DNA of 64,000 nt, from positions 7,218-71,217 of the forward strand of contig JACKGO010000002.1 of assembly GCA_020631975.1 (NCBI GenBank), read 5' to 3'. The notes below the pieces were generated by a model. It had not been told where the DNA came from and searched no databases. It was given only the letters and a program-made list of their open reading frames with translations. Origin of the DNA: Candidatus Nomurabacteria bacterium. GTDB taxonomy: Bacteria > Patescibacteriota > Saccharimonadia > Saccharimonadales > CAIOMD01. Both the position numbers and the translations under genes were made by a program. Positions 1,288 to 58,354 of this stretch are shown here, in pieces; position 1 is the first letter of the stretch, and every line of letters starts with the position of its first letter.

Positions 1288-1342
1288 ACCAAGAGCCACA
1301 CTACCACCGCCACATAAGCCAGTGCCGGCTGTGACGCTGAGG

Positions 1343-19704: not shown

Positions 19705-19745
19705 GCACTTAATCCTTACTTATTTCTATTTTAGTATACAACGTT

Positions 19746-27252: not shown

Positions 27253-27295
27253 GAGGGTGTTCTCTGTCTATGCAGGCAGATGGCACTCTTTTTTT
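27253..27295 (+). terminator. Hairpin + T7 immediately upstream of the KGG gene RBS (terminator or attenuator)
   Basis: Stem TCTGTC/GGCAGA (27263-27280) with outer GAG../..CTC pairing, followed by T7 (27289-27295). AAGGGAGGA and ATG follow within 30 nt. Confidence 0.45.
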
Positions 27296-27321
27296 ATTTA
27301 GTAATCAAGGGAGGATACTAA

Positions 27322-27876: not shown

Positions 27877-30777
27877 TTACTGCACAATGATGTAGTCAAA
27901 CGTATACGTTTGGCCGGTTATTGGTGCATTAAGTGTTTGTATTATTAGTGTGTTTTGCTGCGTGCTATTAAATATTTGTAGGCTAGCTGTGTTGGCATTT
28001 TTGGCAGATAATATGGCTCTTGGTGCTATATCAAACTGTGCGTTAAAAGCTATTTCGGCTAAGTCGCCTGCTGTGGTGTTGGCACCAGCAATTATAGTTA
28101 TGGTTCCGGCGGTGTCGTTACCTTCTATGGTTACTTGTGGGGCTGGTATGTTGTTTAGGGTGTCTTCTGTACCTGCTGCTGTACCTGCTGTTGCTACTGG
28201 GGCGTTACCAGCTGTTATGATGTGGCCGTTTATAGTAATGTTAGCTACGGTGATGTTCTCTACTGTTAGGTTGCCGTTAAAGATAGCGTTGCCATTAACC
28301 GTAAGGCTTGTTAAGGTTGTGTTGCCAGATACATTCAGGCTACCGCCAATAGACATATTGCCATTAATAGTAGCGCTGCCACTAATGTCTAGGCTGGCAC
28401 CTTGTAAGACGGTACTTAGTGGTGGGCCTGGGTAATAGCCTTGTTCTACATAAACCATAACGGTAGTTTTACCACTTAGCGGATCCCAGGCTTCTAGAGC
28501 TTTACCTATAACGGTACCGGCAGCTTCAGCTTTTTGAGCTTTACCAGTGTCTGGTGAAGTAGTAATGTAGTCACCTGGTTGGATGTTGCTGGAAGCAACA
28601 GATATTTTAACTGGTACACGGCCGTTTAGAGCGACAGGCATTGGGTTGTCTTCTTCTTTTATGTTATGACCAGCCGAAGTGAAGTCCCCATAATTGTTAG
28701 ATACAATACCTATAACATTAGCTTGGTACGAACTACTGGTTTTAACTAGGCGAGTTACCTGGCCTTTTACTTTGTTCCAGTCTACATTACCGTCTGTTTC
28801 GTCGTAGGTATTAACCATTTCAGTGCCTATGGCCACAATGTCGCCATATTCAACACCACTAGTGACCGGGTACATTTCTGCGTAGTCAGCAGCTGGGGCT
28901 GCGTTACAGTCACGAAGTTGATAGGCAGTGTTGGCTGTTGGTGCGGTACCATTTGCTAGGCTAGAACAAACAGCGTTGGTACTAGCAGCATTACCTAGAG
29001 CAACACTTACAAAGCCCCGGGCGGTGGTGGTGTCTACATTTAGCAATGTGTTGCCGGCTGCATTTTGTACTTGGAAGGCAGTTGTTGAGTCAACTGAATT
29101 CTTAAATACACTTGGGGACTGTTCACTGGCGATTTTTAGGTAGACATCGTCGTAGTACCATGTACCCGTTGCACCTGTTCGTTTTGTTAAATTAAAGTTC
29201 ATAAAGTACTTGCCCGCAGGAACAACGACACTGTTAGTTCTGAGCGTGTAACTTGTGCCAGGATCTGTCCAGACATCTGTTGTGAAGCTAGGGTTGGCAA
29301 AATCTTTATCTGTAAACTCAACATAGAAACCACCAGTACCGCCACCACCGGCAGAACGCTTGACCCAACCTTCATAATAAATTACCTGCCCAGGTTGCAC
29401 AGGCACCCTTTTAACGGTACCCACATCTTTAGGTCCAGCCGCACTTATGCTATATGAATTATTGCCAGACCTAGCATTATTGTTGACTATATCACCAGTT
29501 GTCCACCACCCACTGGAACTAGCATTACCCAAACCAGACTCAAAACCAGGATTTTCAATTTCATTATTGTTATCTCTTATAGAATTGTTAATGATATAAC
29601 CTGTGCCTACAGTTGACCCAGTTTGATTATCCATATTGAATAATACATTGCCTGTAGCATTTTGAAGCTGAAATGCTTGGGTCGTATCTGTAATGTTTTG
29701 AAATACAGCCGAGCCGTCCGAGTACACACGAACTACATTTTGCGGAGAACCGCTAACTGTTAAGTAAATACCATTCTTACCTTGAAGCTGTAGAATATCG
29801 GTGTCGGTGGTTGACTGTTCACCTACCCAAACATTAGTACCAATGCCGTAATCGCCAAAGTAAAGTCTTGCTGTTGCTCCACTTGACGTTGGGTCATCGC
29901 CAATAATAACCCTACCGTTTGCTGTGTCCACCTTTAGCATTGCGACACCGGCTGCGTTCTGCACCTGAAAAGCGGTAGGCGAGTTGACTTGGTTTCTAAA
30001 TAAGCTTTCTCCATTGCTATTTATGCTAACTATGGGGTTAGTGGCACCCTGCAAGTAAAGTGGAAACCTGTTTGTGCCAGTAGTCAAATTCTCTACAAAA
30101 ATACCATAATTGTTGGCAATGGTGCCGTTGTTTAGTGGGTTGGCTACACTAATGCCAATAGCGTTTGTAATGGTTCCCGTGCTAGAGTTTCTTATTTGGG
30201 CATTAATACCTGTTGCGTTTGTAATTGTGCCTGTGGTTTGGTTGAATACTCTAAATTGTCCACCATATACATAACCGACTGTACCCGTTCCCTCGTTAGC
30301 TGCTTGTCCATTAACGCCATAGAGTAAGGCATTTGTCATGTTGTTACTGGTTGTTCCAGCCCAAGTACCGACTGCGGCATAAGATTCATTAGAAACTGAA
30401 GAAGGCGTAGCTGTTACAGTGAATAATGAACCATTTTGATTGAAGGTGTTGCTGGTAGCAACAGTATCAACATATAAACCAGAACCTCCAGAGACATTCT
30501 GACTTATCAGATTTTCTAAATAAATAGCTGACCCAGAAGTGTCTATTGTGAATAAACTGTTACTAGCGCTATTCTGCACCCTGAAGGCAGTGCTTGAATC
30601 TACTGTGTTTTTGAAGGTTGTAGCGCCAGTGTTACCTACTGTTAGCACATTGCTAGCGCCTTTTTGTAAGGTGAGTAAGTTACCACTTGCACCTGTTTTG
30701 TTAATGAATATAGAGCTGTTATTGGTAACTATCTGTTTGTGCGCTGGCTGGAGCGAGCTGTACAAAGCCAGTTCCAC
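27877..30777 (-). CDS. Locus B C-terminal ORF (fibre repeats, CBM-like jelly-roll, shared C-terminal module)
   Basis: 966 aa. It contains an NPGFE...W...YYDDVYLKI carbohydrate-binding-module-like segment. The last ~150 aa (NLTVENITVANITINGHIITAGN...TYTFDYIIVQ) are homologous to the C-termini of loci C and D. Confidence 0.6.
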   Translation of the reverse strand: MELALYSSLQPAHKQIVTNNSSIFINKTGASGNLLTLQKGASNVLTVGNTGATTFKNTVDSSTAFRVQNSASNSLFTIDTSGSAIYLENLISQNVSGGSGLYVDTVATSNTFNQNGSLFTVTATPSSVSNESYAAVGTWAGTTSNNMTNALLYGVNGQAANEGTGTVGYVYGGQFRVFNQTTGTITNATGINAQIRNSSTGTITNAIGISVANPLNNGTIANNYGIFVENLTTGTNRFPLYLQGATNPIVSINSNGESLFRNQVNSPTAFQVQNAAGVAMLKVDTANGRVIIGDDPTSSGATARLYFGDYGIGTNVWVGEQSTTDTDILQLQGKNGIYLTVSGSPQNVVRVYSDGSAVFQNITDTTQAFQLQNATGNVLFNMDNQTGSTVGTGYIINNSIRDNNNEIENPGFESGLGNASSSGWWTTGDIVNNNARSGNNSYSISAAGPKDVGTVKRVPVQPGQVIYYEGWVKRSAGGGGTGGFYVEFTDKDFANPSFTTDVWTDPGTSYTLRTNSVVVPAGKYFMNFNLTKRTGATGTWYYDDVYLKIASEQSPSVFKNSVDSTTAFQVQNAAGNTLLNVDTTTARGFVSVALGNAASTNAVCSSLANGTAPTANTAYQLRDCNAAPAADYAEMYPVTSGVEYGDIVAIGTEMVNTYDETDGNVDWNKVKGQVTRLVKTSSSYQANVIGIVSNNYGDFTSAGHNIKEEDNPMPVALNGRVPVKISVASSNIQPGDYITTSPDTGKAQKAEAAGTVIGKALEAWDPLSGKTTVMVYVEQGYYPGPPLSTVLQGASLDISGSATINGNMSIGGSLNVSGNTTLTSLTVNGNAIFNGNLTVENITVANITINGHIITAGNAPVATAGTAAGTEDTLNNIPAPQVTIEGNDTAGTITIIAGANTTAGDLAEIAFNAQFDIAPRAILSAKNANTASLQIFNSTQQNTLIIQTLNAPITGQTYTFDYIIVQ

Positions 30778-32930
30778 AACTACCCCAACTAGGTGCAGCC
30801 CCTACCCCATTAGATATTAGGCATGAACCACTGGCGACAGCTGCTAGTTTGCTTATGGTTGTAGCACCTGATGCATAGAGTAAGTCACCTGTGGTGTAGC
30901 TACTAAGACCAGTACCACCGTTGGAGACACTTAGGGTTGTATTGAAGTAAGTAGCACTGTTTCTGTCTACTGCTCCAGTGCTAAGCACACCAGAACCATT
31001 AGTTTGTAGTAAACCTGCAGTGTTTAAGCTACTAAATGTAATGGTACCAGAGCTAGTAATAGCGGTAGCGTTTTGGATAGCTCTACCTGAACTGATGACA
31101 GTTGTGGCTCCTACTTGTAAGTTACCACTTACTAGATTTAGGCTATCGCCAGTTGCTAAGTCTAAGCGGTTAGCGGCGCCACGGCTTAAGGCAGTGTCTC
31201 CACCAAATGTTAGACTGCCGCCAATAGTGGCATTGTTTGTAATGGCAAGGCTGGTACCGACACCTGTAGCACTTAGTCCACCACTAAAGGTAGAAGCTGT
31301 AGCAGTGCTGGCTCCTCTACCAGTAACGGTAGCTAGGGTATCTGCTTCTGTGAATGAGGTTAGACAGGTTGCAGTAGTACAAAGAGTGCCACTAGAGTTA
31401 GGTAGAGTCCATGTCTGGTTAGCGGTTGATCGGCACTAGTAATAGTTCCGTTGAATCTAGCTGCACCACCTGCTGTAACGGACAATATAAGCTGGTCGTC
31501 TGTAGCAGTGGCAGTCCCGGTTGTTAGGTTCCGCACATATGCGGTGTTGTTTAGTTAGTGCTCCGGTTAGAGTTGATGTGCCAGTTACGGCTAGAGTGCT
31601 ACTTAGAGTTGTGGCACCATTTAGAGTGTTAGCACCAGTACCTGTTGAGAAGGTGGTAGCACCAGATTGAGTGAAGTTACCTGATGTAGTGAAAGCACCT
31701 GTGCCAAGAGCTAATGTGTTTGCACCGGATACAGTAACTGAGCTATTGAAGGTGGTGGCACCATTTAGAGTGTTAGCACCAGTACCTGTTGAGAAGGTGG
31801 TGGCACCAGTTTGGGAGAAGTTGCCTGTGGTTGTAATAGCACCAGAGTTGAGTACACCTAGTGTAGTTGTACCGGTTACTCCGAGTGTTCCGCCGATGGT
31901 TGCGTTGTTAGTAACACTAAGGCCGGTGCCAGCACCTGTAGCGCTTAAGCCACCACTGAAGGTAGAAGCTGTAGCAGTGCTAGCTCCTCTACCAGTTACG
32001 GTAGCAAGGGTATCTGCTTCACTAGCTAGACCACAACTGCCCCATATAAGCGTAGTCGCATTACTAGTTAGACACTGACCATTAGTACCTCGAGCTAGTC
32101 GAGTAGAGTTAGTACCGTTAGAGTACAGCAGATCACCATTAGTAGTTAGACCAGATATGGCGTTAATGGCGCCTTGAGCAGTAGTAGCGCCGGTACCGCC
32201 ATTAGCGACGGCTAAGGTACCACCTAGAGTTAAGGTACCACTAGTAGTTATCGGGCCACCACCTAGGGTTAAGCCAGTGGTGCCACCACTACCAGATACG
32301 CTAGTAACTGTACCAGTAGTACTGCTAGTACCTGCTCCAATAGCGGTTCTGAAGCTAGCAGCATCTAGAGCTGAGACAGTGTTGTCGGCATTAACTCTTA
32401 GGAATGTAATGGCGCTTGGGTTAGTAAGAGTAAATAGGTTACCACCGACTGTAGTAGCCCCCAGGTTAGTTCGAGCACCAGCGGCGGTAGACGAGCCAGT
32501 ACCACCGTTAGCGACTGGGACACTAGCTACAGTACCAAGTACACCAGCTGCGGTATTGGTGACAATACCGGCTGTACTAAGACCACTAAAGGTAATAGTA
32601 CCAGAGCTAGTAATAGCGGTAGCGTTCTGGATAGCTCTACCTGAGCTAATGACAGTTGTGGCTCCTACTTGAGGTTGCCACTAGATACATTAACATTACC
32701 CGTACCATTTGGAGTTAGAACAATGTTACCGTTACCCGCAGTAGTTTGCACATTAAGATTATTAGAACCGTCTGTGTAAAGTTTGGAGAGTTGGTTGTTA
32801 TTAACCTGGTTAGTAGAAGTAAAATCACCACCGACATAGAGTGGGCCGTTATTTATCTTCTTAAGACTTATATGATCAATTAGAGTGGTTTCACCACCTA
32901 CCGAAGCATAGTTTGTTAAAATGATAACCC

Positions 32931-33758
32931 TTACATATTTGGTGCCAACTGGGAAGTTGGGGAATACCGTTCCTCTCCACTGGTGGTTGCATTAAATTTA
33001 TGCCAGTTGCCATCGTTAGGAATATTATAGGCAGAGGCAGCAAAATAACACCAACTACCACAAGGCGCGGTCAGAATAGCTACTTTCGATGCGTTATATG
33101 CTTTATATCCAAAGTATAATGTTCCTGGGGTTGAGCCAGTAACTGTTTCTTTGAAATAGCCTTCTAGTTGCAGAGTGTCTTTAGTTGGGTCAACCGGTAT
33201 ATAGTCATCTGACTCAATAGTGCCAGCATTAACCGACTGAGCTGTATAGTTACCAGAGTTAGCTCCGGTAACAATGCCAGTAATCCCTGACCATCCTGCG
33301 GTAGTATTTGTTTCAAAGTCACCATTATATAAAAGATTATCGTTATCTGGCACTAAGTAGCCGCCTTGAGTGATTTTACCCGTTACGGCTAAGTCACCAG
33401 TTACCTGAGCGCCTGTACTACTGACCCTAAATCGTTCTGTGCCACCAACACTAAAGCCGAGGTTGTTGGCATCTATACGGTACATACCCATGTTGGTAGA
33501 GCTACTAAAGCTGTAGCTTGGGCCACCGACTGCACCATCTGCTGCTTGGAAAAGACCGGCTGTAGTTAGCCTATTAGTACCGTTTTGTTGGATGTTACCA
33601 CTTACTAGGTTAAGACTATCACCAGATGCAAGGTCTAGGCGGTTGGCTGCACCACGGCTTAGGGTAGTGTCTGCACCAAAGGTTAATGAACCAGAACAAG
33701 CAAAGTTACCACTAGAATTAGTGATTGTACAGCCTGTAGAACTATTGCCACCAGCCAA
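32931..33758 (-). CDS. Locus B internal ORF fragment
   Basis: 275 aa. It contains the RGAANRLDLASGDSLNLVSGNIQQNGTNRLTTAGLFQAADGAVGGPSYSFSS block and a YNGDFETNTTAGWSG CBM-like domain, both also present in the 3965-aa ORF. It is truncated at SGEE.. by a 1-nt loss relative to the paralog. Confidence 0.5.
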   Translation of the reverse strand: MAGGNSSTGCTITNSSGNFACSGSLTFGADTTLSRGAANRLDLASGDSLNLVSGNIQQNGTNRLTTAGLFQAADGAVGGPSYSFSSSTNMGMYRIDANNLGFSVGGTERFRVSSTGAQVTGDLAVTGKITQGGYLVPDNDNLLYNGDFETNTTAGWSGITGIVTGANSGNYTAQSVNAGTIESDDYIPVDPTKDTLQLEGYFKETVTGSTPGTLYFGYKAYNASKVAILTAPCGSWCYFAASAYNIPNDGNWHKFNATTSGEERYSPTSQLAPNM

Positions 33759-34500
33759 TAGAACATCTCCCGTAGTATTCAGAACTTCAATTGGAGCATC
33801 TACATAAGTACCACCATTGTATCGCTGGACTTGAAATGCTGGGTTAGCACCTCCGCCAATAGCACCTATTGACCAGTTGGTAGTAGCACCATAGCTAAAT
33901 GATAATCTCTGAGAACCTGTGCTACCGCCAGTTATTACAGCGGCCGCTTCACCACTGCCCGGCCCAACAGTTAATCCACCACCAACAGTAGCATTGTTGG
34001 TAACACTAAGGCCCGTACCTGCTCCGGTTGCACTTAGGCCGCCACTAAAAGTTGAAGCAGTTGCAGTGCTCGCACCACGAGCTGTGACAGTTGCTAGGGT
34101 ATCTGCTTCAGAGAATGAGGTTAGACAAGTGGCGGTGGTACAGACAGTGCCAGTTGTTGGAAGCGTTAAGCTGGTAGCGCCACTAGTAGTAAAGAATAAG
34201 CTGTTACCAGCTGTAGATAACGGAATAATACCAGAGTTATCTTGTAGAGTGTAAGTTCTAGCAGCGGTTAGGTTGGCGTTGGTTATCGTACCGTCAAAAC
34301 GAGCACCAGTACCAAGAGCGGCTGAAGTAATAAGAATACGATCATCGGTTGCCGTAGCATTATCTACAGTTAGACCACGAATGGTAGCTCCGCCAGTGAA
34401 GGAGCTAGCTGTGGTAGTTGTAGCACCACGAGTAGTAACACTTTGAGGGTATCTGCTTCAGCCGCTAGCTTGCCATTAAAGGTTGTCCAATCGGCGGCAG

Positions 34501-37092
34501 TTAAGAAACCTTTAGTTGAACCACTAGCTGCTTGGCCGTTAGCGTAATCAAGGGATATAACGCCGGCGGCATCGTTAAAGTCGGCGGCTGTAAAGGTAGC
34601 AGCACCTTGGTAGTGCCATTAGCTGCGGCATCGGCAATAGTTAGAGCACCAGTCGTAGCACTAAGTGACAATGCTCCACTAGCACTGACAGCTACCGTAC
34701 CAGAACCGTCAGGTAGAGTAATAGTTCGAGCAGTAGCACCTAGTGTGGTTAAAGCTTGAAGAGTAATAGTGCTAGAACCAGCACCGGAACTTCTAAAGAC
34801 AACTCCACCATTATTAGAACCAGTTGTACCAAGGGTTAGAGCATTAGCTGCAGTGAAGGTGTTAGCAGCACTAAAGCTGTTAGCTTGGTCTTTGTAAGCA
34901 ACATTACTTAGTGTGCCGCCAGTATTAATGTTGGCGCCATTTAATAGAATGCTAGTTGTAGCATTAAGAGTGGCAGCAATACCAGTACCAGTACCAATAT
35001 TAAAGTTAGTGTTCTGGGCTGTACCTGGTGTAGTACCTTGAGCTTGGATATAGTTGGCCGAACCAGAGCTAGCTGCAAATGCGGTACAAGTAATGGTATC
35101 TCCTAGAGCAGTAATAGCGTTACCAGCACTACAGGCAGCTGGGTAATTGTTTAGAGCAGTCCAGTCAACTGTACTGCCAGAACCAATAGTTAGGGTGTCG
35201 TTAATATATGTATCTGTGATGACACTACCCTGCCAAGTACCACTAGTAATAGTGCCAGTAGCGGTAATAGCGCTTAAGTTACCAGTAGTTAGAATAGTAC
35301 CGGTAGCATTAGGTAGAGTGTAGGTTCTGTTAGCAGTTAAATCGGCGCTGGTAATAGTACCGGTAAAGCGACCGGCTCCACCAGTTGTGACACTGAGTAC
35401 TAATAGATCATCTGTAGCTGTAGCTGTGTCTACGGTTAGACCGCGGATGGTAGCTCCGCCAGTGAAGCTTGGGTTGTTAACCACATTAACCGTCAAACTC
35501 CCATTAGCCCCACCATCAGTGATGCTGATGTTAGAGCCGGCGGTTAGAACTCGTTCGTTAGTTAGGGTACCGTCTAAACCTACGGTAATGTAGCTAGCAG
35601 CAATTGGAGCGCTACCACTACCACCTGTACCACAAGTACTGCTGAAGCTTAGGTTACCACTAGCGTCACCAACAATACAGTCACCACTACCGCCGTAGCC
35701 ACTAGGTAGTTTGAAGGTTAGGTTACTAGCAATAGCAGCTGACTGGAGAGTGGTCGTGTTAGAGCTACCGTCGCTTAGGACTAAGCTACCAGCTTGGCTG
35801 GTAGTACCGACACTAACGGAAGCTCCTTGGACAGTTAGAGTACCGCTAAAGGTTGGAGAGTTAGCGACATTGATGGTCAAGGTGCCGTTGGCACCTGTGT
35901 CAGCGACGCTGATGTTAGTGCCAGCACTGAGCAAGCGTTCGTTAGATAGACCAGAGTCATAAGCTAGGGTGAGATACTGAGCATTGTTAGGAGCACTACC
36001 ACTACCACCTGCTCCACAGGTACTGCTGAAGCTAAGAACACCAGTGCCGTTAGTGACTAGACAGTCACCGCTAGTGCCGTTAGTAGCTGGGAGGGTGAAA
36101 GTCAGGTTAGAGCTAATGGCCGCTGACTGGATGGTGGTGGTATTACTGCTACCGTCACTAAGAGTGAGAACACCAGCTTGAGTAGTAGTACCAATACTGA
36201 CACTGGCGCCTTGGAAGACACCAGTACCAGCTACGGTTAGGTTACCGTTAGCTGCTAGCAGTAGTCGGTCGTTACCACCAGACTGAAGCTGGAGTAAGCT
36301 ACCAGTACCAGTTTGGTTGATCCGCAGTGCCGTGTTGGCTGAGTTGACAGTTTGGGTGGCACTAGGTGCCAGTTGGGCCAGTTGGTCAGCTGTAAAGGAG
36401 CCCGTGGCTCCTTTGAGGGTTTGGGCTTGTTGGGCAGCAAAGGCGTATGGTACAGCCGTTACCTTGATGCGAGGGTTCATCTCACCATTCCATGGTGGGG
36501 TGGCGGTTTGAGTAGGACCGCCGATGTTCATGCTGAGCCAGAGTTCTTGGCTCCAGTCTATGGTGCCAGGAAAGGCTGTACCACCAGCCGTGGTATCTGC
36601 CAGGCTGACAGTCAGGTAGCCGTTCTTGACCTGGACACGGTAGTCGTTGCCAGGTGCGGCGCCATTGGTGTCGTAGCGAGTGTCTGTCCAGAGCAGTGTG
36701 CCACCAGAGGCTGCATCGTACAGTTTAAACTGGACGTTGTAGTAGCCATCAGGCACCAGGGCGCCGGTGTTGGTGAGGATACGGGCTTGGAAGTTAATGG
36801 TGGTGTTGGCGGCTGCTAACGCGTTGGGTGTGAAGGCGGGCGTATATAGATATATAGCGGTAAGGAGGCTGAGAGTGAGGGTGAACAAAAGAGAGCTGGC
36901 AGTAATGGTGCGATGGAATATACGGGTTGAGTGGGAATTGGTACTACCAGGATGTAGTACGTATGTACATAATTTTGTAAGTCTATAAAAAACAAAAAAC
37001 ACAGGCCCGCTTATGTGGGATCTGTGCCTAAGATATCTGTTGGTAGGTGCGACGTTGCGGCCTTTTAGCCAATAACGCCATTTGCGCAGCAT
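34501..37092 (-). CDS. Locus B N-terminal ORF (leader + conserved N-domain + repeats)
   Basis: 863 aa. The leader MLRKWRYWLKGRNV... is identical to the locus D remnant. The N-domain AANTTINFQARILTNTGALVPDGYYNVQFKLYDAASGG... is shared with A and C. Confidence 0.7.
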   Translation of the reverse strand: MLRKWRYWLKGRNVAPTNRYLRHRSHISGPVFFVFYRLTKLCTYVLHPGSTNSHSTRIFHRTITASSLLFTLTLSLLTAIYLYTPAFTPNALAAANTTINFQARILTNTGALVPDGYYNVQFKLYDAASGGTLLWTDTRYDTNGAAPGNDYRVQVKNGYLTVSLADTTAGGTAFPGTIDWSQELWLSMNIGGPTQTATPPWNGEMNPRIKVTAVPYAFAAQQAQTLKGATGSFTADQLAQLAPSATQTVNSANTALRINQTGTGSLLQLQSGGNDRLLLAANGNLTVAGTGVFQGASVSIGTTTQAGVLTLSDGSSNTTTIQSAAISSNLTFTLPATNGTSGDCLVTNGTGVLSFSSTCGAGGSGSAPNNAQYLTLAYDSGLSNERLLSAGTNISVADTGANGTLTINVANSPTFSGTLTVQGASVSVGTTSQAGSLVLSDGSSNTTTLQSAAIASNLTFKLPSGYGGSGDCIVGDASGNLSFSSTCGTGGSGSAPIAASYITVGLDGTLTNERVLTAGSNISITDGGANGSLTVNVVNNPSFTGGATIRGLTVDTATATDDLLVLSVTTGGAGRFTGTITSADLTANRTYTLPNATGTILTTGNLSAITATGTITSGTWQGSVITDTYINDTLTIGSGSTVDWTALNNYPAACSAGNAITALGDTITCTAFAASSGSANYIQAQGTTPGTAQNTNFNIGTGTGIAATLNATTSILLNGANINTGGTLSNVAYKDQANSFSAANTFTAANALTLGTTGSNNGGVVFRSSGAGSSTITLQALTTLGATARTITLPDGSGTVAVSASGALSLSATTGALTIADAAANGTTKVLLPLQPPTLTMPPALYPLITLTAKQLVVQLKVS

Positions 37093-39744: not shown

Positions 39745-42700
39745 TTATTCCACAATAAAGTACGTAAAGGTGTACGTCTTTCCGGCTTGAGGTGCCTGAT
39801 CTGTATAAATACTAAAGCTGGTGTTGGTGGTTGTAGAGCCGTCGTAATATGCGCCTACTTTGGCACTATCGCGGTTAGCTGGGCTAAATACTACGCGTGG
39901 TTTATTGGTAAAGGCAGTATTAAAGGTAACTTTTGCGAGTTCGTCTGCGGTTGTGTTTGCGCCGGCAACCACTGTAATAGTGCCGGATGTATCGTTACCA
40001 CTAACAGTTACTACGGGGGCTGCGATATTGTTCAGTACGTCTTCTGTGCCAGCTGCTACGCCTGTGCTGACCGTAGGTGTATTACCAGCAGTGATAATTT
40101 TACCGTTTACGGTGATGTTAGCGACGGTGATGTTCTCTACTGTTAGGTTACCAGCTATTACTACATTGTCTGTTACAGTTAGGCTCTTCATGGTTACTGG
40201 GCCGGTGACATTTAGGCTACCTACTATATTTAGGCTACCTTGTATTGTGCCACCGTTAGTGAGGTCTAGAATGTTGTTAGAGGCCGGTTGAATGGAGTTT
40301 TCAAGCGCGGTAAGGCGATTTTGAGCATCGGTTATCATGGCTTGTTGTTCTTGAACGGCGCCGATGAGAGGTGTGACGAGGCCTGCGGTATCTAGTAGCA
40401 GATAACCTTGACTATCTACGCTCACAAATTCAGGTAAAACCGTTTGGACATTCTGAGCTATTAGCCCGAGTTTTTGGGTACCAGGATCTGACTTGTATCT
40501 ATAGTAAGTGGGCTGTAGTTGCATTATCTTAGCAAGATTGCCTGTTGCTGAACTATCTATATATTTCAGCCTTTCATCTGATGTGCATGATAGAGAACCA
40601 TGTATAGTACAATTTGAAGTTTGGGTATAAAGACTCAGGCTCATTCGTTGACCTGGGTCACCAATTGTCGCCCATTGAGCACCGGGGTTTAGAGCTAGTG
40701 CCGAAGTAGAATTATTTACTCCTATATATGCAGCATTAGTACCAGTATTAGTCCAAAGTTGCATGTAATTATAGTTACCATACACTCTAAAACTATTGTT
40801 TTGATATGTTCGAACAACATTACTTTCGATAGAGTATATGCCCGCACCATAATTCTCGTTATACCATCCTGTCTGTCCATAAGACCTAAACCAGTTAGAT
40901 GCATAGACAGCACTATCAGCTGTAATGCTACCATTACTCCAAAAGCCACCATTATATATATTGGCATACTTGTTAGTAATTGACGCGCCATCTTGCCAAA
41001 TCTGCTCGCGACTATGAGTTATGACTGCAGCTGGTGAATACTGTACGAGTACATCACTATTTACATTGTTACCATCATTCTGGACCCCAATGATCAATGC
41101 GCCGTTTTCTGTACTATCACCCCAGTAGTTATAAGCATTATTATCGTTATCCCAATGTATATACCCATAATCAGAACCACCCGTATCTACCCCACCAAAC
41201 AATTCTTCTCTTCCAAAAAAGATATCCTTACCAGCATTGATACCCACACCAGTACTTGTAACGGCAAACGAGCGTTTTTGTGCTTGTATTTTGTCTACAT
41301 AAGCAGTTATCGCACCAGCGGCATCACCCTGGCCTGTACTAATAACTATTCTGCCTTTTAACTTGCCGGCAGGTATTTGGAATGTACCTCTACATTCTGC
41401 CCAGCTCGTTGTGAGGTTGCAATCTTTTACTGTGTATATGGCTGCTCCTGGGACAAAGAACATAGGGTCATTTGCACTATCGTTCAAAAGTATCCCAATG
41501 GAAAGATTTGGTACAACACCACCGGCGGTACCTGAGTAAAAACCATAGGCGGACACTTCTATAAATTCGCCGGGTGATACATCAAATGAATCTAACATAT
41601 CATACCGCTGGTAACCACCCCCACCCGGGTTTGCCGCAAAAGTGGCAGCCGCAGAATATGAACCAACATTGCCATAATGAGTGGCACTTCTGGTAGATGT
41701 TGAGCGGAGTTGCCAAAATGTACCATAGCCAATTGGTACATCATTTGCTGCGTTCCATTGTTCTAGATCACCGTTAACTAAAATGCTTTGTGCGTAGGAA
41801 TACGCATTAGCACCATTAACCTTTAGTAGGTCTGTTGTATTTACCATGCTCAACGCCCCGCCTGACGAAGTCCATACAGCAGCGCTAATATTTTGCCAAG
41901 AGCCGGCATTATTTTTTACCTGCAAGGTACCAGCATTGTCTCTTATGCCATAACCAGCTGAACCACTGGTTGAGCCGAAGTTGAGATAGCTGTTTGAGCT
42001 AGCAAGTATGTTGCCATTTACTGTTAATTTAGCTGCAGGATTAGTGTCGCCAATACCGACATTGCCATCGCTAAGAATTGTCAGTTTGTTACTCCAGCCG
42101 CTTGCTCCTCTAGTAAAGAATGAAAGGTTTGCGTATGCACTGCCATGATTGATATTCTGTGCAGCAATACCCGCCGCTATACTGCCATTGCCGTGAAACG
42201 CTAGCTCTGTCCAGTTATTTGTAGTTCCATCACTGTTCCTGAGAGCCATTTGAGCATTGCTACTAAATGCTCCGGTAGATGTATTGGCCTTTGAAACATC
42301 CAACAAATATTGTGGGTTAGTTCGGCCGATTCCCAAATTACCAGCTGTGGTTAATGTCATGTGTGCCGTTGCTGCACCGTTGGCATGGAAGGCTAAATTA
42401 TACCCGTTGTTCGTGACAAGTCTTGCTGTGGTATCGCCGGTGCTTGCGGCTACACCCAAAATGTTGGTTCCACCTGCTTGCCACATTTGGTTAAAGTCGC
42501 CTGCGGCATTTGTAAAGGTTGCGGGCGCTGTGTAGTTAACAGTTAGCCTATAGCTTGACCCCGTTGTACCGACCGAGACATTACCGTTGTTACCCATAAA
42601 CATAGTGCTTGTAGAAGAATTATTGCGAATGTTGAAGCCACTTGCACCATAGTTAAGATACATTACATTGTCGCTCCACCTTGGCCACAAGAACTGTTCA

Positions 42701-45700
42701 TATGTTCCACCAGAATTTTTAGCCTGCAAGGTAGCTGTGTTTTCAAACTGCAATACACCACCAGTGCCAGTAACAACAAGATTGTTCGCTTTACCTTCAC
42801 CGCTTATCCAATAATTGCTTGAACTTTGTGCACTACTGTTTTGGTTCTGAATATAGTTACCACTTCCACTAGCCGGAGCAAAAGCTGTTGAGTCTAGACC
42901 GTCTAGCAAATCGGCATTAAGGTTTGTAACTTTTGTTGTAGACGATACGGTAAATGGCGAAGTACCAGTTGCAATAGTAGAGGTGAACCTAGTACCTTGT
43001 ATTACGCCAGCAGCCGTTAGGTTGCCAGAACCATCTAAGACTAAGCCGTCTAGTTGGGTGCCCGATGAGTTAACTGTTGAAAAGCGCATTGAATTATCTA
43101 ACAAGCGAATCATTGAGCCACCGCGGTTGGTGTTAATGCGCGGGAAGCCAGTGGTGTTGTACATATTGTTAGCTATACCAACACCAGTGTATGTGTAGCC
43201 AGGTTCGCTTGCCCACAGCATAAGATCTGCTGTGTTAGTTGCACCACCATCACCAATAGAATGAAGCAATAGTTGCGTATCACCATGACCACCATATACT
43301 TCTAACTTGCGGCTAGGTGTAGCAGTGCCTATGCCTACTCTGTTGAGAGCTGCATCTACAAATAGTGTGTTTGTGTCAAAGGTGGCGTTACCAGTTACTG
43401 ATAGAGTTGATGTGATGCTGGTAGCACCATTCAACGTATTAGCACCGGTGCCAGTGCTAAAAGTTCCGCTACCGGTTTGGCTAAAGTTAGAGTTATTAGC
43501 TACAGTTATACCACCGTTGAAGGTACCAAGGCCCGTGAAGGTGCTGGTGCTGGTTACAGCTAGTGTACCGCTAAATGTTGCAGCACCAGCATTTGTAATA
43601 GTTAGTCTTGCGGTATTTGCTGTCTCTAATACAAGTGCTTGTGAATCGTTAGTGCCCAGAGTTGCCGTAGTACCAAAGCTGTTACCGTTTTGGATAAAAG
43701 GTCCGCTTTGGGAAGGCGTATTTATTAAAGTGTAATTAATAGGTGTAGTTTCGTCTGTTACTAATGCCCCACTCCATGCATCACCCCAGCCATCTATACT
43801 GCTATGGCCTGCTATTATTTCTTCTATAACCACCTTGGGGTACTGCCAAACTGTAGAAGTATTGCCTAGCATGATAACTGGATTTGTACCGTTACTAGCT
43901 AGTCTAATTGTAGTGAATGGTGCACTACCGCGTATTTCGGCCGAAGCATTTACCCAGCTTGGAGTAGTGTAAGCATATCCGCTAACTATTGCCTCCCACG
44001 CACCATAGCCCGAATAATCATAGCCCTTAATAGTGAATCTTAACATAGTAGCAGTAAAGCCTTTTGGCGCGGTAAGCACTATAGTACCAGTTTGGTTTGA
44101 AGCAGAAATGTTATACGTATAAACATTTTTATATGTTCTTACGTTGTTTTGAGACCTACTAGTGACGCCGTTTACATCAAGTGCTGTGTTCGGCGTAGTC
44201 GTACCTATACCTACATTACCGTTGTTTTGCACGGTTAGTTTAGTTGTGTCTGCAGTTTGCAGATATAGATTACCTGTACCGCGTGAGTTAAGTATTAGAT
44301 TTTGGTTATTTGTTGAACGAATTTCGTTTTGTAGTGGCGTACTGTCGTATGATGATCCTAGTAGCAAGCCTCTAGCCCTTATATTGGTAGCACCACTAGC
44401 AGTAGTTAGTACCGAAAGGTTACCAGCATCTGTCATGATTTGACCACTAATAACATTTAGGCTATCCCCGCTGGCTATGTCTAGGCGGTTAGCTGCACCA
44501 CGGTATAAGTTAACGTCTGAGCCAAACCGTAGTGGGTACGTAGCGCTGGAATCAGATAATGTTGTTAGGCCTCTTGCTGTAGTGGTGTCGGTGGCTGTAT
44601 CACCCAGTGTGGTGTTGCCGGCTACTGTTAAAATACCGGCTGCAGCTAGTGTGCCGGAAGCATTACTAACAGTAATGGTGCCTGTGCTTGTAGTTAGTAG
44701 GCTATAGTTATTCTGAGAAGAAAGTAGTGCGCTTGGTTGTATACGGAATGCATTGTTTGTACCTGCTCCAGTGATACCAAATAAAGTATTGCCAGTTATG
44801 TCTAGGCTAGCTATTGTAACTTCACTGCCACCAGCAGGCGCAGTAAAAGAAGTGGCGCTGAAGTAGTTCATACTAGAACCTTCAGAAGTTACGGTTACTT
44901 CGCTTGACTGACAAGCTGCCACAGCCTGAGCATCTATATAAGTTACATTAGGTGCACCGCTGTCATTAACCATACGAACATTGCTCCAACAACTTGTGCC
45001 ATTTTGACTGAGCATAGTTATTGAGCCAGATGTTCCCCAGTCTTTGACAACATTCATGACAATTTGGTTAGGAACTCCACTACCGCCACCATTAGACAGT
45101 ACTATTTTTGCTGCACCTCTACCTGCCCCACCACCCGCGCTAGTCGCTATACGGTACCAGTTACCAGCAACGAGAGTACCACCTTGTGTTGTAGTAGTTT
45201 TGGTAACGGCACCAATATCTGAAGCAACTTGTGCAGTCGTACGATATTTAAGAACACCACTGTCATTGGTGACAAAACCAGTAAAGGTTGCGTCATCTGC
45301 AGTTTGGTTTATAGTCGTAGCTCCACTAGTAACGGTTAAGCTGCCAGTAAAGTTAGCTGATGATGATATTGTTTGACCATTAATGAGACCAGAGCTTATG
45401 GTACCTATATTAACTAAGTTGCCACTGCTGTCTATACGATTAGTTCCTGCACCTGCACCAGTATTAATGCCTTGTACGCCATTCACAGATGAGTTAAACA
45501 GAAAGCCAGAGCCACTGGTTTTAGAGAATGAACCGTCGCCTAGGCTTATTGTACCTGTGGTGCCGTTACCTACATATACGGCACCGAATCTACCAGTGCC
45601 TGTAATGTTAAGGTTACCAGTTTGGGCTGTTCCTGGTGTACTGCCTTGCAATTGTACATAGCCACTGCCACCTGTAGCCGGCGCAAAGGCGGTAGAGTCA

Positions 45701-48700
45701 AGACCATCTAGCGTTGTTGCATCTACACAGTTGTTAGTTACACCAACGTTAGTAGCAGCCACAGTAATACAGCTACCAGCACCAACTGTAAGGGTAGTAG
45801 AGCCACCAAGTGCAGTGCTACCACCGCCAGTTAGACCATTGCCAGCTGTTACAGTTAGGGCACCGCTGCCAGTTAGATAAGTATTAGCGATGGTATTACC
45901 TTGGTAGGTTACATTTTGGAGGACTCCGGCGTTAGTGAGGCGGGTTGTGTTGTTGGTTAACAATGAGCCTGAAACGATATTTAAGCTGCCATTATAGATT
46001 GTTCCTCCATTGGTACTCACATACAGCTCTTGATATGGTGATGCTTCACCAAAGTCGAGATATAGATCTCCTATCTGAATACCGTTATTAGAAGCGTCTT
46101 CTGTTATGGTTATGCGATACCCTTTTACATACTTCCCCATAGAATTAGAAGCGTAGTAGTAGTTTTTGCTATAGCCCGTGACATTAGTAACTGTTTCCCA
46201 GTTATATGTGATGTTGTCTAGTGACGTATATAGCTCAATTGTGAAGTTAGTTGGTCTCCAGTACCTACTGTTCCACCCGTAAGATACTCCTCCTGTCTGT
46301 GTATTTCTTACAGGAAAATCAACTTGTACTATAGCAGGTGCTACTGCTGACACATCTCCACCTGATGTTGTAGTGGGTGTTGTGTCACCATCAAATAACG
46401 ATGCTAACGATGAAAATAGTCTTACGGCACCAGGCTGTGTAACAGTATAGCCGGGGCGTGATGTAGCATTATAAAGAATATTATATTCACCTGCTCTAAA
46501 ATTCATGGTATTTCCACCAACAGGGCTCGTAGCATTGATAATGTTATTTGCTAAGATGTTGACTGAGCCATCAGACTGTACCCTAAGTCTTTCATTTCCA
46601 CCGGTGCTAAAGCCGAGCGTATCAGCGCCGACTAAATACATACCAGTATTAGTATCACTACTAAAGCTGTAGGATGGGCCACCTACTGCACCATCTGCTG
46701 CTTGGAATAGACCGGCTGTGGTTAGTCTGTTAGTTCCGTTTTGCTGGATGTTACCACTTACTAAGTTAAGGCTATCACCTGTAGCGAGGTCTAGGCGGTT
46801 AGCGGCGCCACGACTGATGGTAACATCTGAGCCTAGGGTAAGGTCAGCGCCTGTCACTGTAAGATCTTGAGCAATGGTGACATTAGCCCCATTTAATGCT
46901 ATTCCACCGCCAGCAGTGTTGTTTATAACAAGGTTGTTTGAACCACCGTATTGGAAGTCTGCAAAGTTAATTGGTGTGCCATTGGCATCTGCTTGTAAGC
47001 GAATATAGTTATTTGAGCTATTAATGCTGTCGTTTTTAAACACCGCCATAGTGCCCCCACCATAGCCATCACCTATTCCATAAACTTGGAAAAAGCCACT
47101 GCCACTACCGTTTTGGAAGATATTGCTACTGCCCGTGAATGCTGAGCCAGTGTCTACAGTTAAACTTCCACCTAGGCGGCCATTGCCACTTATCCAAAAG
47201 TTGCTAGAACTTTGGGCACTTGCATATTGGTTTTGGATATAGTTACCGCTACCTGATGATGAAGCAAATGAGGAACAAGTTATTGTGTCGCCAAGTTGAG
47301 TTATGGCCTGCCCTGCGCTACAAGCACCTGGATAGTTTGTCAGTGCAGTCCAGTCTACTGAGCCTGCTGAACTGACCGTTAAGGCATCGTTTATATATAT
47401 GTCGGTTATGACATTGCCGTTCCATGTTGCGCCAGTAATGGTGCCTGTTGTAGAAACGTCTAAACCCGAACTATCTATGCTAAAGTTACCACCGCCACTA
47501 AACCCGTAAGCGCCACTGGATTGGCTGTAACCAGTGATGCTAGAAAGAGCCCCAGCGGCGCTAAGCCGTTGCGTGCCACCAGTGTATAAGTTGCTTGCAA
47601 TATTTACATACCCAGAACCATTAGGAGTTAGAACAATATTGCCGTTACCAGCGACGGTTTGGATGTTAAGGTTATTTGAACCATCTGTGTAAAGCTTAGA
47701 AACTTGGTTGTTATCTACCAAATTAGTACTAGTAAAGTCACCGCCAACGTAAAGTGGGCCATTATTTATCTTTCTAACACTAACGTGATCAATTAACGTT
47801 GTTTCACCACCTGCTGAGCTGTAGTTAGCTAGGAATAGTACCCGAACATATTTTGTACCCACTGGGAAGTTGGGGTAAGAAGTACCTTCTCCACTGGTTG
47901 TCGCATTTAGTTTATGCCAATTACCGTCGTTTGGAATATTATAGCTAGCTGAAGCGAAGTAGCAATACGTACCACATGGTGCAGTGGTTATTGCCGATTT
48001 TGCTGCATTGTAGGCAATGTAACCAGCGTAGATAACACCTGGAGTAGTGCCTGTAACAGTTTCTTTGACATATGCTTCAAACTGAAGTGTGTCTTTGGTT
48101 GGGTCTACTGGTATATAGTCTTCAGATAATACTGTTGAAGAGTTAACTACTCTTGAAGTGTAATTGCCTGAGTTACCGCCGGTCGTTGTGTCTGTCAAGC
48201 CCGACCAGCCCGCAGTTGTATTAGTTTCAAAATCTCCATTGTAGACTAAGTTGTCGTTATCTAGCGCTAAGTAACCACCTTGTGTAATTTTACCCGTTAC
48301 AGCTAAGTCACCAGTTACCTGAGCCCCAGTAGTAGTGACTCTAAGCCTTTCTGTCCCAGCTACACTAAAGCCAAGATTGCTAGCATCTATACGGTACATG
48401 CCCATATTTGTTGAGCTACTAAAGCTATAGGCTGGCCCACCAACTGCACCATCTGCTGCTTGGAAGAGACCGGCTGTGGTTAGCCTATTAGTACCGTTTT
48501 GTTGGATGTTACCACTTACTAAGTTTAGACTATCTCCTGTAGCAAGGTCGAGGCGGTTGGCTGCGCCACGGTATAGGTCAACATCTGCACCAAAGCGAAG
48601 TGGATAGGTGCTGCTTGAGTCAGATAGTGTTGTTAAGCCTCTGACGGTCGTCGTGTCTGTGTTCGCATCACCCAGAGTGGTGTTGCCGTTTACTTGTAGA

Positions 48701-51642: not shown

Positions 51643-53224
51643 TGCTCCAGCAGCAATCTCACTAGAACCAACACTATCTACTGCTAAGGAACTTGCTGTT
51701 AAGCTGTCATTGGCAATTTGGGCATCACCAATACTATCTGCGGTAATGCTGAGATTAATGTTTGACTAGAAGCAGATACCGCTATTTGGCTATTGCCTTG
51801 GATGGTGAGCGCACCACCTAAGCCATTTAAGGCTGTCACGCCACCAGATCCACCAACACTGGCTTGGCTGACCCACGTAAAGCCACCCGTGGTGTTATCG
51901 TAGGTGAGGACATAGCCGTTCGTACCAGCACCAGCTACGTTGGTGCTTTCTAGATCAATTGCTTCTAAGGTACCGTTAGTAACTTCACTGCCCTCTATGG
52001 TGGTACCGAGACTGCTGGTGAGGGTGACACTGCCACCCAATGCCACCGCGCCACCACCTGTTAAGCCAGTGCCAGCCGTCACGGTGACTTGGCCACTACC
52101 AGTCAGACGAGCATTGGCCACCGTACCGCTACTTATGTTGCTACCATTAAGAGCACTTAAGGCTGCACCATTGCCACTGAATGAGGTAGCCGTGACAGCA
52201 CCGGCGCCAGTCACACGGAAGTTACTAATACCGTTGGTTTGCCAGTTAACGTAATCGCCCGCGTAACCACTGCTGGCGTTAATACCAATGTAGGTACCGC
52301 TGGCACTGCCGGCAGCAATTGCACTACCAAACTTGAGGAGTGATGAGGTGGCCGACAAGGCGGGCACACCAGTGAAATCTGCAGCGACACCGCCGGTGAC
52401 ACTACTCGTCAGGGTTGCACTGAAGGTCTTGGCCCCACTGACGGTTTGGGTATTGTTAAGTAACATCACGTTACTGCTAAGACGAGCGTCAGCGACCGTG
52501 CCAGAAGCAATGTTACTACCATTTAAGTTGGTTAGGTTAATACCACTCACAGCTGGTAATTGGCTGCTGGCATTAAGCTGCACCAGTTGGCTGGCACCGT
52601 TAAAGCTATTGCCTTGTAAGGTAACGTTACTACTAAGACGGGCGTCAGCGACCGTGCCACTGGTAACTTGGTTACCGTTAATAGCAATGGAGCTAGAGCC
52701 GGCAGCGGTTAAGCGGCCATCACTATCTACCGTAGCACATGGATGCACTATAGCTACCACTCGTCACAGTCGTACTGGCGAGTTCAGACGCATTCACTGC
52801 TCCAGCAGCAATCTCACTAGAACCAACACTAAAGGAACTTGCTGTTAAGCTGTCATTGGCAATTTGGGCATCACCAATACTATCTGCGGTAATGCTGAGA
52901 TTAATGTTTGGACTAGAAGCAGATACCGCTATTTGGCTATTGCCTTGGATGGTGAGCGCACCACCTAAGCCATTTAAGGCTGTCACGCCACCAGATCCAC
53001 CAACACTGGCTTGGCTGACCCACGTAAAGCCACCCGTGGTGTTTATCGTAGGTGAGGACATAGCCGTTCGTACCAGCACCAGCTACGTTGGTGCTTTCTA
53101 GATCAATTGCTTCTAAGGTACCGTTAGTAACTTCACTGCCCTATGGTGGTACCGAGACTGCTGGTGAGGGTGACACTGCCACCCAATGCCACCGCGCCAC
53201 CACCTGTTAAGCCAGTGCCAGCCG
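49385..53224 (-). repeat. Tandem repeat, 1167-bp unit x ~3.3 copies, inside locus C
   Basis: Identical ORF-track translations recur at +1167/+1166 bp in several frames (49607/50774/51940; 50000/51167/52333; 49878/51045/52211). Copies 1 and 2 look identical. Copy 3 and partial copy 4 carry the indels listed for locus C. Confidence 0.9.
51699..52760 (-). CDS. Locus C repeat-copy ORF fragment
   Basis: 353 aa. Apart from its first ~10 and last ~15 residues it is identical to one 389-aa repeat unit of the giant ORF. It is bounded by indels. Confidence 0.45.
   Translation of the reverse strand: MVAIVHPCATVDSDGRLTAAGSSSIAINGNQVTSGTVADARLSSNVTLQGNSFNGASQLVQLNASSQLPAVSGINLTNLNGSNIASGTVADARLSSNVMLLNNTQTVSGAKTFSATLTSSVTGGVAADFTGVPALSATSSLLKFGSAIAAGSASGTYIGINASSGYAGDYVNWQTNGISNFRVTGAGAVTATSFSGNGAALSALNGSNISSGTVANARLTGSGQVTVTAGTGLTGGGAVALGGSVTLTSSLGTTIEGSEVTNGTLEAIDLESTNVAGAGTNGYVLTYDNTTGGFTWVSQASVGGSGGVTALNGLGGALTIQGNSQIAVSASSQTLISALPQIVLVMPKLPMTA

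Positions 53225-58321: not shown

Positions 58322-58354
<33 letters not shown>

Follow-up and report, generated by a model that had tools for sequence, protein, structure and literature searches.

Frame breaks in four giant fibre loci of a Saccharimonadales contig as probable leftover errors of a long-read consensus

Do the many broken reading frames in the giant fibre genes of this CPR epibiont-like bacterium belong to the organism or to its assembly? The window, that is the whole stretch of 64,000 nucleotides analysed here (contig JACKGO010000002.1 of GCA_020631975.1, Candidatus Nomurabacteria bacterium), carries four giant host-interaction genes, which taken at face value become about 20 fragments or pseudogenes, and such an annotation would invite stories of decaying or phase-variable surface systems. 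The first-pass annotation had weighed silent or decaying cassettes and slipped-strand switching against a technical origin, with a slight lean to the latter. Our results back that lean much more strongly, with intact comparators that differ only by indels, and the defining features of the biological readings are absent. The 17 breaks found here are very probably leftover long-read consensus errors, a technical artefact, rather than pseudogenes or on/off switches.

Four fibre loci and their breaks

Three-frame translation of the window gave 17 frame breaks, all in four paralogous minus-strand fibre loci (seven in B, four in C, four in D and two in A).

1..2962, minus strand: fibre locus A, N-terminal 2.96 kb; the gene runs off the window start
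27877..37092, minus strand: fibre locus B, one 3072-codon gene once seven small indels are repaired
39745..54860, minus strand: fibre locus C, with a 3965-aa ORF (39745-51642) carrying a Peptidase_S74 domain (PF13884)
55244..57319, minus strand: fibre locus D, about 690 codons, with four breaks (~57078, ~56975, 55994-55997 and 55566-55568)

The upstream region and the N-terminal coding region are common to all four loci (D8, D17 and D20 families), and C-terminal domains are reported as present in all four. The family is mosaic, and N-terminal regions have been swapped between paralogues. If the breaks fell at random over the coding sequence, the chance of 17 out of 17 in the fibre loci would be about 3e-5. 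The non-fibre ORFs, about 22.4 kb in all, are uninterrupted and include IleRS (959 aa), RNR (918 aa), PriA (653 aa) and IF-2 (589 aa). The first-pass annotation was thus right that the disruptions are confined to the fibre genes and that the housekeeping ORFs, these four among them, are unbroken, its estimate of roughly 25 kb being measured at ~22.4 kb. Its minimum counts also held for B, D and A (at least seven, three and two; 7, 4 and 2 counted), its figure of at least five for C was too high as only four frame changes were counted, and the eight changes that it listed in B and C were all found within about 10 nt of where it had placed them. Its description of the breaks as mostly ±1 nt changes in 2-3 nt homopolymers stood in its first part (about 12 of 17), while the homopolymer part fits only about half. 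The homopolymer runs at the break sites are 1-4 nt long, and B5, B6, B7, both locus A sites (A1 and A2) and the -8 nt site in C are not homopolymer-length changes. No motif common to the break sites, such as a methylation site, was found in the contexts compared; GATC adjoins B6 only, and CCT-CAA is common to B2 and B4.

Locus B has an N-terminal hydrophobic anchor or signal-like segment, repeats rich in T, S, G and N, and a C-terminal block that recurs in C and D; a Pfam search of this locus gave no match at all. Its breaks all fall within 30725-34605.

34605..34608, minus strand: B1, 1 nt missing; coding strand ACCAA-GGT (AAAGG to AAGG), where homologous repeat units of L011 (77% nucleotide identity) have ACCAAAGGT
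34445..34446, minus strand: B2, 1 nt missing; coding strand CCCT-CAAAG, the missing base being the third position of the Leu codon before CAA
32974..32975, minus strand: B3, 1 nt missing; plus strand CCT-CTCC, where the locus C paralogue has CCTTCTCC and homologue L022 reads through
32671..32672, minus strand: B4, 1 nt missing; coding strand AACCT-CAAG, where the internal paralogue at 31031-31147 has AACTTACAAG
31552..31553, minus strand: B5, 2 nt missing, non-homopolymer; plus strand GTTGTTT--AGTTAG, where L018 has GTTGTTTACAGTTAG
31427..31428, minus strand: B6, 1 nt missing, non-homopolymer, adjoining GATC; plus strand GCGGTT-GATCGG, where L018 has GCGGTTAGATCGG
30718..30726, minus strand: B7, net +1 nt; the window has GTTATTGGT, L018 has GTTAGTTG, and L013 and L020 have ATTGGTTG
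30727..32062, minus strand: block of 1336 nt whose only differences from L018 are B5 and B6, both internal, and B7 at the edge

Seven edits of 1-2 nt produce a locus B ORF of 3072 codons with a terminal stop only; the edit at B5 took out 1 nt, with the same effect on the frame as putting back the 2 nt missing relative to L018. The segments between the breaks are each still open in the correct frame, and neither nonsense substitutions nor larger deletions were found across the 9.2 kb of the locus. L018 is an independent metagenome scaffold from another strain, with flanking housekeeping DNA 98.4% identical to the window and an uninterrupted fibre ORF of 2638 aa, and it is 100% identical to the window on either side of B5. 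B7 coincides exactly with the switch of the window from L013-like to L018-identical sequence, and the alleles of L018 and of L013/L020 are both intact at this position.

The comparators available for B1-B4 and for all the D breaks are only 77-85% identical, and relative to them these breaks are window-specific. The unique domain spanning B3-B4, used as a query against JGI metagenome contigs, GTDB genome representatives and IMG/VR, yielded only relatives of 51-71% identity, or none. At the protein level, a search with the repaired middle of B (1401 aa) did not find a near-identical protein; the best match, P0001, had 83% identity over 17% of the query, and its source, a Flye-style contig, is fragmented in turn. 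When the frameshifted 863-aa and 966-aa ORFs of locus B were looked up exactly, no public assembly had a record of them, which is weak evidence against the existence of these alleles elsewhere, as the choice of start codon matters.

In locus C, the N-terminal 3.2 kb is split into three further pieces, and the database relatives are labelled 'tail fiber domain-containing protein' and come from Candidatus Saccharimonadales MAGs.

49371..53225, minus strand: tandem repeat with a period of 1167 nt, three near-identical copies and the start of a fourth
53134..53146 (~53141), minus strand: C1, 2 nt missing (CTCT to CT); plus strand CACTGCC--CTATGG, where the other three copies have CACTGCCCTCTATGG
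53042..53044, minus strand: C2, 1 nt extra (TT to TTT); plus strand GGTGTTTATCG, where the other three copies have GGTGTTATCG
52735..52739 (~52737), minus strand: C3, a complex shortfall of 8 nt, with substitutions close by, as compared with copies 1 and 2
51763..51764, minus strand: C4, 1 nt missing (GG to G); plus strand ATGTTT-GACTAG, where the other three copies have ATGTTTGGACTAG

The 1167-nt copies are 99-100% identical, and over about 375 nt the four copies agree at 100% but for three indels, every one of which occurs in a single copy. C3, a loss of 8 nt accompanied by substitutions, could be partly real variation. The locus also has in-frame differences of -3 and -9 nt.

In locus D, the coding strand reads AAAA where AAAAA is expected (55994-55997) and CCC where CCCC is expected (55566-55568); several related contigs are without the entire locus. 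Locus A is broken at two sites.

~1349, minus strand: locus A break, 2 nt missing
1284/5, minus strand: locus A break, 1 nt missing

At both, the window is the lone outlier among five homologues (the comparators being L005, L040, L028 and the window's own locus C), and the bases are missing in the window only. L028, another large-contig MAG with 98.5% identity, has frameshifts at other sites, where the window is in frame. Comparison with related loci, which had been proposed earlier as a check, thus returned intact alleles at B5-B7 (L018) and at A1 and A2 (L005, L040, L028).

Indels without substitutions and two accuracy regimes

The background variation was measured against short-read-style contigs at least 99% identical to the window (41.8 kb), which differ from it at 430 substitution sites and by about 15 indel events. 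The indels lie between genes or in RNA genes, or are compensated only a few nt away, and none leaves a net frameshift in a gene. The breaks with an exact comparator gave 0 substitutions and 6 indels (Fisher p = 5e-9 against this background), and wherever the comparator was exact or near-exact the frameshifting indel was the sole difference between the window and the intact allele (B5-B7, three of the four C breaks, A1 and A2). The fibre ORFs are unbroken, at 930 to 3235 aa, in every MEGAHIT-style or scaffold-style contig recovered. Judged by sequence comparison, our results show indels that appear specific to the window, free of substitutions and absent from each independent contig that reaches them, both properties having been checked with exact or near-exact comparators, and B1-B4 and the D breaks being window-specific only.

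Four contigs match the window at 100% over 10.2 kb of distinct sequence. If errors were as dense there as the breaks are in the bad stretches, about 20 would be expected, so two accuracy regimes exist within one contig. The best matches of the contigs at least 99% identical end at 2536, 29177, 36531 and 49018, two contigs of greater divergence (94-98% identical) extend to 35499, and every break falls in stretches outside the best matches of all contigs. All 112 housekeeping homopolymers of at least 5 nt are unbroken, and the longest homopolymer in 30700-34620 is one single 5-mer.

Consensus error and the biological alternatives

The favoured mechanism supposes a long-read-derived assembly, in which certain fibre-gene stretches would have kept long-read-level indel errors, roughly 1-2 per kb and mostly deletions; at every place open to a check, the window has short-read accuracy. 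In C the affected stretches would be the near-perfect 1167-nt copies and in B its mosaic, strain-variable middle, and locus D and the junctions of the shared N-terminal repeat would be affected too. Short reads may not have been placeable there, or the short-read graph may have broken and been bridged with long-read consensus. Contiguity through three 99-100% identical tandem copies and four paralogues would imply long reads; the sequencing technology is inferred, as is the failure that applied at each site, which may be repeat multi-mapping, strain-mixture consensus or hybrid bridging. The portions consulted of PMC8812927, PMC9262707 and the proovframe preprint (10.1101/2021.08.23.457338) describe that long-read assemblies retain indel errors and that short-read polishing is unreliable in repeats, so that errors stay.

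The first-pass annotation had named multi-copy regions that short reads cannot polish as the cause. This fits C with its 99-100% identical 1167-nt copies, and lacks support in B, where no paralogue of the broken stretch within the window exceeds 92% identity over 99 nt. Multi-mapping inside the window is therefore not supported for locus B, and a strain mixture, or a long-read bridge over a point of breakage in short-read assemblies, is more likely there. Some observations count against consensus error: a number of the indels do not alter homopolymer length, B is broken in a part that has no high-identity repeat in the window, the -8 nt site in C comes with substitutions, and a second large-contig MAG also concentrates its frameshifts in fibre genes.

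Recent real frameshifts that inactivated all four fibre genes, an early pseudogene decay brought about, for example, by weaker selection in an enrichment or by a change of host, are unlikely. The breaks keep to a single gene family that is non-essential and varies between strains, other strains can dispense with locus D, and the related MAG GCA_041402185.1 also has broken fibre genes; but its frameshifts are at other sites, which are in frame in the window, and its PriA gene call is truncated (284 aa, compared with 653 aa in the window), which suggests a general inaccuracy of that assembly. Several breaks per gene (7, 4, 4 and 2) would need time, yet exact comparators gave no substitution against six indels, and natural variation in the same population runs at about 430 substitutions to 15 indels. 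The absence of any stop from the 3072 repaired codons of B and of larger deletions from its 9.2 kb, and the 1336 nt that apart from indels are 100% identical to the intact L018 allele, also stand against decay.

It is quite improbable that the indels are real products of a lineage-specific process which makes 1-2 nt indels in fibre genes without repeat tracts. Such a process would predict the frameshifts of the second MAG, and if true it would explain why breaks occur only or mainly in the fibre genes of two independent large-contig assemblies; it would switch or scramble giant mosaic adhesin genes, with frameshift patterns that differ between strains or cells.

Phase variation, in which slipped-strand events at the breaks would turn the contingency loci of a variable surface system on and off, is largely refuted by the lack of repeat tracts, and we hold it to be highly improbable. 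The loci are of surface type, hypervariable and multi-copy, and some changes are ±1 nt in short runs; against this, the runs at the breaks are 1-4 nt, with one 5-mer as the maximum in 30700-34620, at least five sites involve no change of run length, the longer runs found in other genes are intact, and one gene would carry seven switches where one would suffice. A silent-cassette archive, in which the broken stretches are unexpressed donors for recombinational antigenic variation and their frame is irrelevant, is hardly credible either. The mosaicism is clear, with an identical 1336-nt block within otherwise diverged alleles, N-terminal exchange between paralogues, and presence or absence of locus D between strains. 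However, each broken stretch sits mid-way in a full-length gene with an upstream region, an N-terminal anchor and a C-terminal domain of its own, edits of 1-2 nt restore one clean ORF, the same block is in frame inside a long ORF in L018, and no promoterless partial copies were seen in the window. Programmed ribosomal frameshifting was rejected, as the break contexts hold no slippery heptamer (X XXY YYZ) and homologous sites are in frame in other assemblies, and DGR-type mutagenesis, which makes adenine-directed substitutions and not indels, was ruled out.

If the breaks are consensus errors, the genes are to be read as intact. The organism itself most likely has an uninterrupted gene for a giant surface fibre at each of the four loci, with lengths of about 700 to about 5000 codons (A running off the window). 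The main value of this result is a caution against taking the sequence at face value, and it offers a reusable, read-free test, in which indels without substitutions are sought against independent contigs or the genome's own identical repeat copies. The biology worth following is the strain-hypervariable, recombining fibre family and not the frameshifts.

Comparison with known systems

Slipped-strand contingency loci are phase-variable surface genes in Neisseria, Haemophilus and Campylobacter, with a homopolymer or short tandem repeat tract of roughly seven or more units at the switching site. The window resembles them in having ±1 nt frame changes in genes for variable surface structures, but its sites have no tract, and several breaks lie mid-gene instead of one tract near the 5' end. 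Cassette-based antigenic variation is represented by pilE/pilS, vlsE and the MgPa repeats of Mycoplasma, and a silent archive consists of promoterless partial copies without the N-terminus beside one expression site. The fibre family shares with these systems its multiple copies, mosaic recombining segments and strain-level hypervariability; unlike them, the four loci are complete with their own N- and C-termini, and the breaks are point indels and not truncated cassettes.

The residual indels of long-read and hybrid assemblies, as far as they are described in the portions consulted of PMC8812927, PMC9262707 and 10.1101/2021.08.23.457338, are similar in being small, mostly deletions and gene-splitting, in lying in tandem repeats and in paralogous and strain-variable regions while the remaining contig is at short-read accuracy, and in being absent from short-read assemblies of the same population. 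Compared with what those portions describe, many sites in the window differ in not being homopolymer-length errors, and the broken part of B differs in having no high-identity repeat in the window; what probably applies there is a strain-mixture consensus or a long-read bridge and not simple multi-mapping. A last comparison bears on the genes and not on their frame breaks. Unlike Peptidase_S74 fibre proteins, locus B is without any Pfam match, and locus C, with its C-terminal Peptidase_S74 (endosialidase chaperone) domain, is like the tail-fibre-like giant surface proteins of Saccharimonadales and other CPR.

The fibre genes and their surroundings

The relatives of the proteins encoded in the window are labelled 'Candidatus Saccharimonadales bacterium', and these relatives, together with the single rRNA operon and the interrupted 23S gene, indicate a bacterium with a small genome, of the type found in the Saccharimonadales (CPR/Patescibacteria). 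Four paralogous giant fibre genes are set between and among ordinary genes, which include those for IleRS, class II RNR, FtsZ, FtsA, PriA, IF-2, L21, a Y1 transposase and a beta-lactamase-like protein.

1-2962, minus strand: fibre locus A, extending past the window edge
27877-37092, minus strand: fibre locus B, no Pfam match
39745-54860, minus strand: fibre locus C, Peptidase_S74 (endosialidase chaperone) domain near the C-terminus
55244-57319, minus strand: fibre locus D
57835-64000, minus strand: the one rRNA operon
59108-59614: LAGLIDADG endonuclease ORF interrupting the 23S gene

Loci A, B and D have an upstream region and N-terminal coding block in common (99% identity over 212 nt), and locus C carries a shorter N-terminal block about 90% identical to theirs. 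The family is mosaic and hypervariable among strains whose remaining sequence is more than 99% identical: past 29177 and 35499 the alleles become abruptly divergent, and the paralogues trade N-terminal regions. This is the behaviour expected of host-recognition fibres. In several related contigs (L041, L043 and L047) the 5S rRNA flank at 57672 is joined directly to 55194, a short distance upstream of locus C, and locus D is missing, so that locus D with its upstream region (55195-57671) is, on these junctions, a strain-specific insertion or deletion; in another contig (L040) a gene resembling loci A and C occupies the position of locus D. A 1336-nt block (window 30727-32062, corresponding to 7511-8850 of L018, an independent metagenome scaffold of another strain) is identical in two strains that differ by 1.6% in housekeeping DNA and far more in the rest of their fibre alleles, which implies that fibre modules have recently recombined or undergone gene conversion. 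The terminal segment of L018 is 98% identical to part of locus C (48320-48839).

Other features of the window also vary or recur among samples. The 23S rRNA gene (58108-62041) spans 3.9 kb as compared to a 2.9-kb model, and the intron-like insertion that holds the LAGLIDADG homing-endonuclease ORF is 100% identical in other samples (L038, L046). Between loci B and C, at 37408-39033, a Y1 (IS200/REP-type, PF01797) transposase-like gene and a beta-lactamase2-family gene show 100% protein identity across 35 collection blocks. A 495-aa ORF without a Pfam match (19746-21233) adjoins a DUF5663 gene; it is absent from GCA_041402185.1, whose contig L012 skips 19706-21302, and is replaced in contig L015 by a 541-aa ORF and an extra DUF5663 copy, with a transposase-like gene a few kb off. 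The region is a second small variable island. Flanked by a 165-aa ORF and the gene for the KGG-repeat protein, a stretch of roughly 1 kb (26319-27321) holds no credible ORF and no Rfam match, and is conserved across related contigs, with an 11-nt indel at 26393 in L018.

Distribution and character of the frame breaks

The breaks of locus B were read from three-frame translation of 30600-34700, each frame hop being mended by an edit of 1-2 nt. The coding path of the locus changes frame seven times in this interval, and after the seven repairs it is one continuous ORF, 3072 codons long, without any internal stop.

34605-34608: B1, -1 nt
34445/6: B2, -1 nt
32974/5: B3, -1 nt
32671/2: B4, -1 nt
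31552/3: B5, -2 nt
31427/8: B6, -1 nt
30718-30726: B7, +1 nt
(B1-B7 are plus-strand positions)
~53141, 53043, 52737 and 51763: the four frame changes of locus C

Locus D has four frame changes and locus A two, and the remaining 22.4 kb of ORFs in the window has none. These counts agree with the first-pass annotation, which had confined the breaks to the fibre genes, with at least seven in B, three in D and two in A, and whose eight listed base changes were all correct; its minimum of five for locus C was too high. Its statement that the breaks lie mostly in short homopolymers held for about half of the sites, which are run-length changes, and failed for B5, B6, B7, A1, A2 and the 8-nt site in locus C. 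Among the housekeeping homopolymers of at least 5 nt, none of 112 was broken, and 30700-34620 contains one homopolymer of 5 nt. The minus strand of 31460-32680, a 407-codon in-frame piece of locus B, has no ORF of at least 100 aa from ATG, GTG or TTG, so that the fragments of B would be skipped altogether by gene callers and not even annotated as pseudogene pieces.

Comparison with related contigs

Exact-protein look-ups of neighbouring genes brought up dozens of contigs that belong to this population and come from other samples (the Y1 transposase, the small KGG protein, L21 and the LAGLIDADG ORF). Most bear MEGAHIT-style (k141_) or scaffold names, and their short-read origin is taken from this naming. 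They are 98.4-100% identical to the housekeeping DNA of the window, and in all of them the fibre genes run unbroken to the contig end, with ORFs of 3235, 3050, 2638, 2353, 1855, 1609, 1588, 1517, 1465, 1453, 1448, 1330, 1020, 1019 and 930 aa. Across the 41.8 kb of the window covered by contigs at least 99% identical, substitutions occur at 430 distinct sites and indel events number about 15, the latter all intergenic, in RNA genes, or in pairs cancelling within a few bases inside divergent patches. The exact-comparator blocks at the breaks, as against this background, hold 0 substitutions and 6 indels (Fisher p = 5e-9). Four contigs match 10.2 kb of distinct window sequence at 100%, while indel density in the broken stretches is about 2 per kb, which indicates two accuracy regimes within one contig. 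The best matches of the contigs at least 99% identical stop at 2536, 29177, 36531 and 49018, 35499 is reached by two more divergent contigs (94-98% identical), and all breaks fall where no contig's best match covers.

The main comparison for locus B is with L018, 98.4% identical in the flank and with an uninterrupted ORF of 2638 aa. Window 30727-32062 is 100% identical to it save at exactly B5, B6 and B7. At B5 and B6 bases present in L018 are missing from the window, and the restored residues agree with a homologue reading ...GALTVNNTAYVRNL... and ...DLTAN.... At B7 the window reads GTTATTGGT, as compared to GTTAGTTG and ATTGGTTG in two intact alleles, exactly where the window switches from sequence resembling contig L013 to sequence identical to L018. 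B7 looks like a blend of the two intact alleles, and we infer that it reflects either a consensus of mixed haplotypes or an artefact of the junction. For B1-B4 and the D breaks the comparators are homologues only 77-85% identical. A single-base gap in the window was seen at B1 and B2 against repeat units of L011, at B3 against the locus C paralogue and at B4 against an internal paralogue; within the window, no paralogue of the broken B stretch exceeds 92% identity over 99 nt. L011 (ENA ERZ25039527 contig_76697) is a Flye-style contig whose homologous fibre gene carries at 7251-7319, in one of four otherwise identical tandem units, a private substitution and a 1-nt insertion (GTGTCATT>GCGTCCATT) by which the ORF is terminated. 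The position is 8 nt downstream from the B2-equivalent site, and genes further downstream on L011 are fragmented too.

Locus C contains a tandem repeat (49371-53225) with a period of 1167 nt (389 codons), in three copies 99-100% identical and the start of a fourth. Over about 375 nt the four are identical save for GG>G in copy 3 and TT>TTT and CTCT>CT in copy 4, each private to one copy and each frame-shifting. Copy 3 has further differences of -8, -3 and -9 nt near 52737-52831, which may be real in-frame variation or errors. In locus A, compared with two short-read contigs with intact ORFs, one related MAG and the window's own locus C, the bases at A1 and A2 are missing from the window alone. 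That MAG, GCA_041402185.1 (617-kb contig, 98.5% identical to the window), has its own locus A frameshifts at other sites, where the window stays in frame, and a PriA gene call truncated to 284 aa (the window has 653 aa); its assembly is thus the noisier one and does not testify to shared biology. Two D breaks, AAAA for AAAAA and CCC for CCCC, were deduced from the frame in which the protein reads and from the C-terminal block of B, which is homologous.

Origin of the breaks

The frame breaks are very probably an artefact and not a biological feature. The first-pass annotation had leaned slightly to a technical origin, and that lean is strengthened by indels unaccompanied by substitutions, private to the window, with intact alleles elsewhere. 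A real and recent inactivation of the fibre genes is unlikely, because the substitutions and stops that should accompany it are missing. Slipped-strand phase variation is highly improbable in view of the lack of repeat tracts at the breaks, and an archive of silent cassettes no more credible, since the loci are complete genes and L018 carries the 1336-nt block in frame. Programmed frameshifting was rejected: the sites are in frame in other assemblies and lack slippery motifs. It is very unlikely that any natural process would yield many indels, several per gene, with no substitutions and no repeat tracts, private to one assembly, in a sequence that otherwise matches the intact allele of another strain exactly.

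Three 1167-nt copies and four paralogues resolved in one contig imply long reads. The artefact would then have arisen in a long-read-derived assembly whose unique DNA was corrected to short-read accuracy and whose repeat, mosaic or strain-variable stretches were left with long-read consensus errors; short-read assembly and polishing probably both failed in the fibre loci because the family is hypervariable and mosaic. In locus C the near-perfect tandem copies are the evident cause of the uncorrected errors, and for locus B the candidates are a further genomic copy, a strain mixture (hinted at by B7), or a gap in the short-read assembly graph that was bridged by long reads. Failure of short-read polishing in repeats is described in one report (PMC8812927), and truncation of genes by indels in long-read data is described in another (PMC9262707) and in the proovframe preprint.
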